Below, piece by piece: positions 29,538-48,672 of a DNA stretch of 64,000 nucleotides; position 1 is the stretch's first letter; each line of letters begins with the position of its first letter. The notes under the pieces were generated by a model. That model worked only from the letters and a program-made list of their open reading frames with translations. It searched no databases and was not told the origin of the DNA. Made by a program: the position numbers and the translations under genes. Source of the stretch: Balanoglossus misakiensis (taxonomy: Eukaryota > Animalia > Hemichordata); assembly GCA_040954595.2 (NCBI GenBank), contig CM082593.2, positions 4,791,434 through 4,855,433 of the forward strand, given 5' to 3'.

Positions 29538-29717
29538 CTATCAATGAGAATTTTATCAGGACAAGGAATTACATGAGTTGATCTTATTCTTATACATCTG
29601 AAATACTTCACTCCATACTTCAACCCATCAAGGCAAGTATGAAACTCACAAATTAATAAATATTTATCTACATATTTTTATCCAAGAGTTGACCATAGCT
29701 GCATATGATGCGTGTAC

Positions 29718-29924
29718 CTGTGGCATTCTTGCCAGCTCTTTCAGCCCACAAGTGGAGGGCAACAAAGGCTTGCTCGTTGACATTGTCATCATTTTCACTC
29801 TTGATTATTTCAATTTCTCTGTTGTTCAAGCCAAGCTCCCTGCCCAGCTTCGGCCAGTCCTGACCGAGTTTTTCTGCAAGGTGCCACAGGCGGATTTCAG
29901 CTCGCTCATGAGCACTGGTAGGAC
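29718..29924 (-). CDS. ANK: Death domain exon 1 (SPTSAHERAEIRLWHLAEKLGQDWPKLGRELGL...LHLWAERAGKNAT-G)
   Basis: 207 nt, phase 1-1; death-domain motifs LGxDWxxLxRxL and LxxWxxR. Confidence 0.93.
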
Positions 29925-37803: not shown

Positions 37804-38055
37804 CTTGACATATTCTGGAATAGTTATGTTTAAATTACACATTGCTTTCTGCGGCGGTAACCCCCTCTGAACTTTGGGTTCCCTCATGAACGACAGCCTT
37901 CCGCATGGCTCCTGTGTCTGGTCCCGTACTCGGACGAAGAATGGCAAGCGGTTTTCGCGGAAGGCGTGAAAGTTGAGGTGGAGTTGTTCCCCGGATTTCT
38001 GCACGGGTATGAGGTTCCCGGCTAGTTCTATGTACTGAGGTTTGTCTTCTAAAAC
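37804..38055 (-). CDS. ANK: UPA exon ([18 protein letters not shown]...[12 protein letters not shown])
   Basis: 252 nt, phase 0-0. Confidence 0.95.
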
Positions 38056-43150: not shown

Positions 43151-43375
43151 CCTAAGAACTGTGCACCGGAGGGTCCAACCTCGAGGACGCGGCTGGCCAG
43201 AGCTTCGCCCTCCATCAGCGGCGGTGGGTTGATGAGTTTCTGCCGCTTGATGAGTCGGCAGGTGATGCGAGTGGGCCCGGTTGCCTTCCCTGGCGGCACG
43301 ATGATTCGGAGTCCAGGCAGACGGCAACCGCGCATGGCGCCACCACGGGCGTCCACCATGAAACTGATCAGGAAG
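43151..43375 (-). CDS. ANK: ZU5-A exon ([30 protein letters not shown]...[18 protein letters not shown]), spectrin-binding domain
   Basis: 225 nt, phase 2-2, canonical ZU5 sequence. Confidence 0.96.
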
Positions 43376-43422: not shown

Positions 43423-43572
43423 AAATGGGACGAAAGAAACAATCATTTATGATGAATTATTTACACTGGTGCAATAATGTTGAGTTCGTAGTCATATTAA
43501 ATGGGATGAAAGAAACAATCATTTATGATAAATTATTTACACTGGTGCAATAATGCCAAGTTCGTAGTCATA
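43423..43572. repeat. Intronic direct tandem duplication, two copies of a 76-bp unit
   Basis: aaatgggaygaaagaaacaatcatttatgat...gttcgtagtcata starts at 43423 and 43499 with few mismatches. Confidence 0.9.
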
Positions 43573-43721
43573 ACTGAATTTCAATTGGGACATACACACA
43601 CAACAGATAGCGACTGATCTCATATGCCCCTTATAGCGTACATACATGTATACCCTACCCTACGATACGTGTACATGGTCTTGTCAAGGTCACGAAAGAG
43701 ACCAACATGTACAATACTTAC

Positions 43722-45580
43722 CCTGCGTGAACTGGAATGGATGTGAGAGCTACATTATCTTGTACAAATGGCACAGGCTTGCCATCTGCTCCGTAGACCA
43801 TGCCCGGCACGATCTGTCCGTTCTCGTCAACCACGGAGTCGCCGACGTAAATCACCTTGCCATCGGGCCTCCTCATGGGCTTTCCATCGGGTCCGATCAC
43901 CGGCTCCACGATCGTTCGGGTGGTCACGGTCTCGGAATAGAAAGTGCTGTAGGTGACTGGCTTGCCACTGTAGCCGTACACCATGCCGGGAACGTACTGG
44001 CAGTCGTCGTCCATGTAGGGGTCGCCGGCGTAGATGTACTGTCCGTTGGGCGTCTTCATGGGGAGTCCCTCGCGGTCTTTCACCGACTGCCGCAGGATGG
44101 TCGTTGTCGTTGTGGTTGTGGTGGTCGACGTCGTCCTTCTCGAATAAAACTCACTGTACGGCACCGGGCGCCCATCATAACCATACACAAGACCTGGCTC
44201 CACCTTCCCGTTCTCGTTGACGACCGGATCGCCGGCATACATGATCCTCCCGTCCGGGGTCAGTTGCGGCTCGCCGGTGGAATCGATCACGGGGGTTCTG
44301 GTCACGCCGTGAATGGAATAGTAGACCTCGTATGTCACGGGTTGGCCGTCTTCGCCGTACACCATGCCCTTCACGACAGTGCCGTCTTTCTCGACGACCG
44401 GATCTCCTGCGTACATCGGCCGGCCGTCTGGAGTCTTGGCCGGCTTGCCGTCGGGCCCGATAATAACCTTTCTTGTGATAGTGACGGTGATGTAGTACTC
44501 GGTATATGTGACAGGTCTACCATCACGGCCATACACCATGCCACTGACAATCTTTCCTTCCTCATCAGTGACGGGATCTCCCGGGTGGATGACGCGGCCG
44601 TCTTCTGTCTTCATCGGCTCGCCGTCGTATCCCCTGATGACCGGTCTGGCGATGCTCGTCGCTGTGTAGTACTCGTCAACTGGTACAGGTTTGCCCTCGA
44701 CGCTGTACACCAGTTTCTCGTTGATCACGCCCGCCTCTTCGACCGGGTGCCCTGCGACGATTGGTCTGCCGTCAGCGTGATGGAGAGGCAGACCGTCTGG
44801 TCCTCTGACGATGTGTCTAGTGACGATGACGGTAGTGTAGAAGACAGTGTACTTGACTGGGCGACCGTCGAGTCCGTACACCATTTCCTTGACGACCTTA
44901 CCGTCTTCATTGATTTCGGGATCGCCGGGACGAATGTGTCTGCCATCGGCCGTCTTCAACAGCTCGCCATCCGAACCCTCGATCGGTTCTCGAGTTTCCA
45001 CAGAGCTGGCGAGGTAATCATCGTACGTGATCTTCGCTCCGTCCACACTGTAGACCATTCCCTCCACGACTCGTCCTTCCTCGTCGACGACCGGATCACC
45101 GGCGTACATGGGACGTCCGTCGGGAGTCTGCATGGGCTCGCCGTCGTTGCCGCGGACGAGGATCCGGGTCACTTTGGTCATTGTGATGTACACCGTGTAC
45201 TTCATGGGTTTGCCGTCGGGCCCGTAGACCATGCCCTCGACTTCTTTGCCGTCTTCGTCGATGTACGGGTCGCCGACGTGCATGTCCGAGCCGTCCGGCT
45301 TCTTCATGGGCTCGCCGTCTTGATCGTAGACGAGTCTTCGCAGACTGACGATGATGGTCACCTCGGTGGTTCTCGTCACCATGTCCTTCTCGGCCATGCT
45401 GGGAGGGGCGCTCTCCTGGACGCCCACTCTCTCAGCTTTGATGATTTCCGGTTCCACGCTACTGGTCTTGGAGTACGAGGTGTACGCGGCAGACCGGTAG
45501 TAGTTTGGCATGGATCCCTTCTGGGATGAAGATGGTGACTCAACACCCGCGGTTGGTGGGTAGGCAGCACTGAGACGTGT
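43722..45580 (-). CDS. ANK: Large linker exon carrying nine ~58-aa Asp-Gly repeats and ending in conserved DNVALTSIPVHAG
   Basis: 1859 nt open frame, acceptor ttttcag, donor GG|GTAAG, phase 0-2; joins in frame to the ZU5 exon ([13 protein letters not shown]). Confidence 0.9.
43766..45331 (-). repeat. Nine diverged coding tandem repeats of ~58 aa (~174 bp), consensus approx. VxGxDGEPMKTPDGRxxYAGDPVVDEEGxVVxGMVYGxDGxPVxYxxYY...TR
   Basis: Manual alignment of the 597-aa ORF translation. Confidence 0.9.
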
Positions 45581-45950: not shown

Positions 45951-46069
45951 CTGGTCTCTTAGCCAAATTTCATCAATGGTCATTGAGTGAACAGGCATCG
46001 AGTCGTCGGCCATGTTTTTCATTTCATCGACTGTTAGACTAGGCATATCTCCAGTCATTGTGTCCTCAC
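45951..46069 (-). CDS. ANK: Ankyrin linker exon (GEDTMTGDMPSLTVDEMKNMADDSMPVHSMTIDEIWLRDQ)
   Basis: 119 nt, phase 1-0; resembles the ankyrin-B linker GDDTMTGD...LGDDSLP. Confidence 0.9.
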
Positions 46070-48159: not shown

Positions 48160-48238
48160 CCTCATCTTCAGAATCAGACATGAAAGTTTCTTGCATCACT
48201 TCTGGTACTTGAACCTTCAATTTCTCATCTTTCTCAAC
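48160..48238 (-). CDS. ANK: Ankyrin linker exon (VEKDEKLKVQVPEVMQETFMSDSEDE-G)
   Basis: 79 nt, phase 0-1; resembles the conserved VPETMxE...SDEEG linker of ankyrins. Confidence 0.9.
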
Positions 48239-48474: not shown

Positions 48475-48672
48475 CTGTGTGGTTTCTGTGGTAACAGTTG
48501 TCACGGTGACAAGCGTGTTGACGACCGAGATGTAGCCAAGTCGCTTGGCAATGGCCAATGCAGTGTAGCCATTGTTGGTCACCTCGTTGGGGTCAGCACC
48601 GTGCTGTAAGAGTAGATTGATCAGTGCTACGTGTCCTTGCTGTGCTGCCTGGTGCAATGGAGTTAATCCAGC
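48475..48672 (-). CDS. ANK: Ankyrin exon, ANK repeats 23-24 ([14 protein letters not shown]...[22 protein letters not shown])
   Basis: 198 nt, AG/GT flanks. Confidence 0.95.

Follow-up and report, generated by a model that had tools for sequence, protein, structure and literature searches.

Known ankyrin linkers and repeat arrays

The linker between the ANK repeats and the first ZU5 domain is a regulated region in vertebrate ankyrins, where it is the seat of autoinhibition and of a mini-exon that switches the affinity for spectrin (PMC5779224 and bioRxiv 2020.03.04.976142, in the portions available). In ankyrin-B the linker comprises 138 residues (828-965), with segments described as disordered in the accessible text of PMC5779224; within it, the segments AI-c (828-852) and AI-b (865-896) bend back onto the groove of the ANK repeats (accessible parts of PMC5779224 and PMC3663501). 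Strand beta0 of ZU5-N is made by the last 15 linker residues, which increase the affinity for spectrin more than 20-fold, according to the available part of bioRxiv 2020.03.04.976142. Ankyrins of some lineages also contain giant exons, which follow the death domain in protostomes and echinoderms, and not in tunicates or vertebrates (Jegla et al. 2016, PMC5135030, available sections). The same sections report the proposal that the repeat arrays of these exons act as spacers in Drosophila Ank2.

The repeat array described here belongs to a predicted ankyrin of the acorn worm Balanoglossus misakiensis and lies in the ANK-to-ZU5 linker. It resembles the giant-exon arrays of other bilaterians in being lineage-specific; unlike it, those arrays adjoin the death domain and are biased toward Ser, Glu and Thr (PMC5135030, as far as the accessible text goes). 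The window analyzed is a stretch of 64,000 nucleotides (assembly GCA_040954595.2, contig CM082593.2, positions 4,791,434 to 4,855,433). Coordinates given below are positions in this window, and features are on the minus strand unless otherwise stated.

The acorn-worm ankyrin gene

Most of a minus-strand ankyrin gene lies inside the window, with its domains in the order ANK-ZU5-ZU5-UPA-death domain. The N-terminal ANK array is marked by 14 phase-0 exon boundaries between 60330 and 48475, and the last ANK-repeat exon (48475..48672) matches Pfam Ank. The ZU5-ZU5-UPA cassette extends from 43375 to 37804 and was recognized by tblastn with three ankyrins, by Pfam ZU5 and UPA_2, and by matches to ankyrin-2 and -3 in the PDB. 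Its ZU5-N exon (43151..43375; Pfam ZU5, PDB matches) retains VDARGG intact. The UPA exon (37804..38055; PDB chains, Pfam UPA_2) contains EPCGRLSF, a motif common to vertebrate ankyrin-2 and -3 that is present in their PDB chains and in none of the 128 ankyrins fetched for comparison. The death domain exon (29710..29910), found by tblastn and by Pfam Death (E 1.3e-12 at 29910-29710), follows the UPA domain.

Downstream of the death domain are two giant acidic ORFs (21615-11137 and 5998-3695), predicted exons of the very long, Glu/Ser/Thr/Pro-rich kind that adjoins the death domain in giant ankyrins; the first exon is placed at 21513-11137. The first is an array of EEAPTPVEE-type units with a period of 162 nt and 52.7 copies (Tandem Repeats Finder, 91% matches); this array is young and homogenized. 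Long antisense ORFs over the giant exon are by-products of its array. The EPCGRLSF motif of the UPA exon and the placement of the giant exons after the death domain point to a hemichordate or an echinoderm.

Three linker exons separate the ANK exons from ZU5. The first (48160..48238) ends in QETFMSDSEDEG and, by sequence and by comparison with the available part of PMC5779224, resembles the autoinhibitory AI-c segment. The second (45951..46069, phase 1-0) occupies the position of the vertebrate AI-b segment as given there, and may by that position share its function. The third is the expanded repeat exon (43722..45580). The gene is thus like ankyrin-B in its AI-c-like acidic segment, its DN[VI] lead-in, its ZU5 with VDARGG, its UPA and its overall architecture, and unlike it in having about 520 aa of predicted folded repeats just before beta0. 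In place of the canonical short, disordered linker there are 708 aa from the last ANK repeat to ZU5, a large part of which is predicted by modeling to be folded.

Several smaller features accompany these exons. A candidate optional linker exon of 102 nt (47624-47523, phase 1-1, splice scores 5.6 and 6.3) sits at the site of a P..P..G-rich linker segment that is optional in protostome ankyrins. Two 76-nt tandem copies (43423-43572, 93% matches) lie in the intron that separates the repeat exon from the ZU5 exon. A second, partial ZU5-N exon (41500-41399) covers Pfam ZU5 positions 46-70, has a strong donor (9.1), a weak acceptor (-2.5) and the phase of the main ZU5 exon, and would be in frame after the repeat exon, without the FLISF/VDARGG spectrin-binding strands; upstream of it, an ATG lies seven codons before an in-frame TGA at ~41520. 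This partial exon may be an alternative, a first or a decayed exon.

Structure and splicing of the repeat exon

The repeat exon (45580-43722) is 1,859 nt long, stop-free and of phase 0-2, and is bordered by an acceptor ...TTTTCAG/ACA at 45580 and a donor GCAGG/GTAAGT at 43722. Splice sites and frame delimit it, and it consists of an 80-aa low-complexity lead, nine repeats and the ZU5 lead-in. The lead (45341..45580) is Ser/Pro/Glu-rich and, from its composition, likely disordered like an ordinary ankyrin linker; its S+P+E+Q+K+A fraction is 0.53, versus 0.29 in the repeats. The lead-in DNVALTSIPVHAG (43722..43759) shows the DN[VI]..P..G motif of protostome linkers and corresponds in position to the beta0 extension of exZZU (bioRxiv 2020.03.04.976142, available part). 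The GC3 of the exon is 0.72, like that of the next ZU5 exon. A 630-codon antisense ORF on the plus strand (43637-45529) was rejected as a gene because it is explained by the codon usage of the sense frame, which has no TTA or CTA and only two TCA, both near its start.

A first-pass annotation, made by a model from the letters alone, had described a nine-copy repeat exon at these borders, unskippable as a whole because of its phases and its ZU5 lead-in, and had seen no short alternative copy in the flanking introns; all three points stand. Six joined exons (48672-48475, 48238-48160, 46069-45951, 45580-43722, 43375-43151 and 40174-40014) form an uninterrupted frame of 880 codons that connects the last ANK repeats with ZU5. 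The same join without the repeat exon contains three stops and loses the ZU5 frame, and the frame is lost in 7/7 tested exon combinations that omit it. Skipping would also remove the beta0 strand, on which tight binding of spectrin depends in vertebrate ankyrins. A scan of five introns turned up no short alternative lead-in exon; its sole pattern match spans a stop. Scored against a matrix built from further splice sites of the gene (21 acceptors and 21 donors), the exon has an acceptor of 6.1 (leave-one-out range of the others -0.1 to 14.1) and a donor of 11.4 (4.8 to 11.1). We infer that transcripts joining ANK to ZU5 would carry the array.

Internal splicing of the exitron type, which the first-pass annotation had suggested looking for, is a separate matter. 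Among the 122 internal GT sites of the exon, none before repeat 1 scores above 3.2, and the only acceptor just before DNVAL is an AG scoring -0.8; a clean exitron removing the whole array is therefore not evident. A partial route is possible from the sequence: a phase-1 donor at 44902 (8.7, in repeat 3) and an acceptor at 43731 (4.7) would splice in frame, dropping about six and a half repeats, splitting repeat 3 and deleting most of beta0. This pair of sites favors a different reading of the locus, in which the array is mostly spliced out or confined to a minor isoform, by way of internal sites or a downstream start, and the main ankyrin has an ordinary linker. The optional nature of long snail linkers (see below) and the partial ZU5 exon at 41500-41399, which points to alternative routes in the gene, are also in its favor. 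Nevertheless, this reading is rather unlikely, given the loss of frame in every exon-skip combination, the poor sites at either end of the array, and the damage that the internal route would do to repeat 3 and beta0.

Age and constraint of the nine repeats

The nine units of ~58 aa follow one another at anchor spacings of 58, 58, 57, 58, 58, 58, 69 and 61 aa. Repeats 1 (45167..45340) and 2 (44993..45166) are followed by repeat 3 (44819..44992), which has a high splice score at the donor-like site 44902 noted above. Repeat 4 (44648..44818) has only 57 aa, with one residue missing, and the longest branch in the repeat tree. Repeats 5 (44474..44647) and 6 (44300..44473) were those chosen for modeling. 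Repeat 7 (44126..44299) is followed by an 11-residue Thr tract (44125-44093), after which come repeat 8 (43919..44092) and repeat 9 (43760..43909), the latter shortened to about 50 aa and continuous with the ZU5 lead-in at DNVAL. No tenth copy was found by the repeat profile in six frames of the 64-kb window. Compared with itself at a lag of 58, the protein has an identity of 0.33, whereas 500 shuffles never exceeded 0.135 at any lag.

The copies are well diverged, with pairwise identities of 32-60% (mean 45%, 36 pairs). Six columns are invariant (G9, G17, G23, V38, Y39 and G43), five of them Gly or Val, which look structural. The sixth is Tyr39, and Tyr48 and Tyr52 are frequent. The motif description in the first-pass annotation holds for the four D/E/N-G turns and the conserved Tyr; the GDP and GMVYG motifs that it ascribed to every copy are present in 7/9 and, in exact form, 5/9.

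Identity between repeats is 0.60, 0.66 and 0.39 at the three codon positions. In the eight repeats other than repeat 4, which was left out owing to its deletion, pS is 0.71 and pN 0.33 (28 pairs, first 50 codons). Because synonymous sites are nearly saturated at this contrast of pS with pN, the array is old and constrained at the protein level, unlike the young repeat of the giant exon. Tandem Repeats Finder reports 14 rows in the window and none in the repeat exon. In the tree of the nine repeats 0/6 branches are supported.

Predicted fold of the repeat unit

Repeat 6 alone was predicted by AlphaFold2 with a pLDDT of 84.9 and a pTM of 0.63 (five models, 82-85), from a shallow, paralogous alignment of nine rows, all from this exon. 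In the model, four Gly turns are flanked by short strands, and residues 48-55 form a helix. Repeats 5 and 6 together, from five rows of the same origin, show the single-repeat pattern twice, each at ~85, with residues 55-57 below 50 and a pTM of 0.45. Each repeat is thus predicted to be a small self-folding beta-hairpin domain, with the caveat that AlphaFold2 predicts Asp-Gly hairpins readily, and neighboring repeats are predicted to be independent beads without mutual packing. The proposal of an old, diverged beta-hairpin module under selection, put forward in the first-pass annotation, agrees with both the substitution pattern and the models. Its alternating Val/Ile/Thr strands do not: the four turns of the unit are Asp/Asn-Gly, the Tyr-rich segment after the fourth is modeled as helical over a short length, and the Val/Ile/Thr residues joining one repeat to the next appear as a low-confidence linker rather than a strand.

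The structural comparison also recommended there, carried out on one and two repeats, gave predicted folds and no Foldseek match at E<=0.001 in the PDB or BFVD. In a VIA-align/fold comparison with 48,161 chains, two reached Z>=2; their scores, 2.4 and 2.2 at best, were treated as background. The 58-residue unit is small and tractable and, on the strength of these models, a candidate for an undescribed fold, of which a lack of matches is no proof.

The lack of a matching solved fold can also be taken to mean that the repeats have no stable fold and are a tolerated expansion of Asp-Gly turns, the confidence of the models coming from local hairpin propensity. The shortness of the regular strands in the models and the scores of unrelated Asp-Gly repeat proteins against the profile are in keeping with this. 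We regard it as very unlikely, in view of the strong amino-acid constraint alongside nearly saturated synonymous sites, a unit length that most copies hold at 57-58 aa, the agreement of the five models and a globular-like composition. The hydrophobic fraction of the repeats is 0.33, compared with 0.34 in the ZZU core, 0.21-0.22 in the giant exons and 0.24-0.27 in snail linker inserts.

Relatives of the repeat

No recognized family was assigned to the repeat in the first-pass annotation, and the family searches are in agreement. For the repeat unit, Pfam gave four weak rows and NCBIfam two, all below cut-off, and PHROGs gave two weak rows with no stretch passing. A search of 1.84 billion representative proteins returned 34 matches at E<=0.001 and none at 1e-30, and no animal homolog of the repeat was found among these representatives. 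The repeat profile was run on all 34 matches, and the 14 that were inspected are bacterial-type YD-like or GPDG repeat proteins. Among candidates of 1,085-3,095 aa, 2 of 7,991 matched, both weakly and both of bacterial type. There was no usable Atlas match for three repeats or for one, PDB sequences matched only at E>=0.007, and no match to the repeat was found in prokaryote genomes, viral contigs or plasmids. Metagenomes yielded two loci at 29% identity; one inspected metagenome locus was rejected as a different low-complexity repeat.

The top whole-protein matches (E 5.6e-14 to 2.7e-12) are YD/RHS-like FG-x-DG proteins (P0004-P0006 and others), and they arise through summed G-x-D-G-x-P motifs. 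These proteins differ from the ankyrin array in their ~32-aa period and other spacing, and their profile scores (28.6-32.8) are within the range of block-shuffled controls; they were rejected as homologs. The repeat may also resemble the Gly-Pro-Asp-Gly-type central repeats of nematode DIG-1/mesocentin; no DIG-1 sequence was among the inspected protein-search matches.

The best match to a single repeat is the tail of a Tad-pilus CpaB/RcpC protein. In marine bacteria, a 57-aa Asp-Gly hairpin repeat is present in these proteins in 4-7 copies and is above no Pfam cut-off (loci L003 2885-5017, L004, L005 2998-5145 and L006 3304-5079; protein P0009). The two repeats share a period of 57-58 aa, seen in five proteins, and Asp-Gly turns in the same order, with profile-profile probabilities of 95.9 and 95.5 over 48 and 45 of 58 columns. 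They differ in that the CpaB/RcpC tail scores at most 24 bits per repeat, has no GMVYG and no Tyr helix, and has five turns per unit. The CpaB profile score was reached by 0/100 column shuffles and by 0/100 (run 1) and 1/150 (run 2) block shuffles. Since the match was picked from 1.84 billion proteins, it indicates a shared hairpin grammar, common descent not being established, and homology of the ankyrin repeat to the CpaB tail repeat is unproven on these sequences. CpaB is presumably a protein of the bacterial envelope and not cytoplasmic. It is quite unlikely, in our judgment, that the unit represents a small novel fold, inherited from the CpaB tail repeat or held in common with it, captured by the acorn-worm lineage and acting as a titin-like spring in every link from membrane protein to spectrin.

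Comparison with other ankyrin linkers

The ankyrins fetched for comparison comprise 8 of 29 candidates and the best 120 of 2,855, for a total of 128, and the named ones are all protostome. None scores above 3.2 bits with the repeat profile. The stretch separating ZU5 from the last ANK repeat could be measured in 117/128 and spans 113-1,080 aa (median 217). Six linkers exceed the 708 aa of the acorn worm, all in isoforms of the snails Pomacea (716 aa) and Babylonia (1,070 and 1,080 aa), and the same genes also have short isoforms (304 aa in Pomacea, 262 aa in Babylonia). The protein word search that supplied candidates spanned 1,085-3,095 aa, and clustering could hide a longer isoform; annotated acorn-worm ankyrin models may already hold the repeat unnamed.

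The gastropod inserts (Pomacea canaliculata XP_025109082.1, Babylonia areolata XP_076460003.1) are like the acorn-worm array in adding hundreds of residues to the same linker. They are unlike it in being optional, Ser/Pro/Glu-rich and of low complexity, and the Asp-Gly profile does not match them. Tandem repetition is shared by the Babylonia insert and the acorn-worm array, although the Babylonia copies are near-identical. These snail inserts form a class of their own: they are optional, 400-800 aa long (P0055 and P0059 from Babylonia areolata; P0048, P0049, P0051 and P0053 from Pomacea canaliculata), and absent from the long exons in the available part of Table S4 of PMC5135030. By eye, none of the consensus units in the accessible portion of that table is like the acorn-worm repeat. 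A literature search found no published description of such an insert, the echinoderm and lancelet linkers of Table S2 of PMC5135030 being beyond its reach.

The first-pass annotation had regarded the architecture as one not known in any ankyrin. That view needs to be divided: a long linker has precedent in snails, whereas among the 128 fetched ankyrins, the named ones all protostome, there is no precedent for an unskippable exon with an array predicted to fold.

Proposed role of the array

The array is preceded by the AI-c-like segment and by the exon that takes the place of AI-b, and beta0 follows it directly. With the putative autoinhibitory segments ahead of it and beta0 behind it, the insert would fall in the one stretch carrying neither function. 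It would also lie in series on the load path, because the ANK repeats bind membrane proteins and ZZU binds spectrin; in that position it would add tens of nanometers of reach, by a rough estimate, and could unfold bead by bead. From these positions and the predicted fold, we propose that the array is a constitutive, lineage-specific tether of beads on a string between membrane cargo and spectrin, a reading whose chances we put at about even. The nine folded modules would lengthen and cushion the link from membrane cargo to spectrin, and under strain they would unfold one at a time, leaving autoinhibition and spectrin binding intact.

Counting against a tether is the fact that disorder would be enough for a spacer, as the snail inserts and the giant exons illustrate; the long retention of a fold in all nine copies may therefore be a sign of binding. 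Each unit would then dock a cytoskeletal, membrane or signaling partner, with up to nine copies displayed beside the spectrin-binding module, and repeat 9, fused to beta0, may also tune the affinity of ZU5 for spectrin. The invariant Tyr39 and the frequent Tyr48 and Tyr52 are consistent with such docking, as is the position of repeat 9, which abuts beta0 near the splice-tuned switch of spectrin affinity (bioRxiv 2020.03.04.976142, available part). On the other hand, most invariant residues look structural, the rest of the unit varies as widely as the mean identity implies, and the partner is purely hypothetical. Multivalent docking is possible, if doubtful, and the tether is the reading preferred here.

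Significance

The predicted gene is an architectural variant of ankyrin, new and built from a repeat without a recognized family, and is known from one genome. The vertebrate ANK-to-ZU5 linker is treated as disordered. If this position does hold an obligatory array of folded domains, the layout linking membrane cargo to spectrin can be remodeled with neither control element lost, and the acorn-worm array would offer a natural construct with which to probe linker length and stiffness in ankyrin-spectrin lattices.
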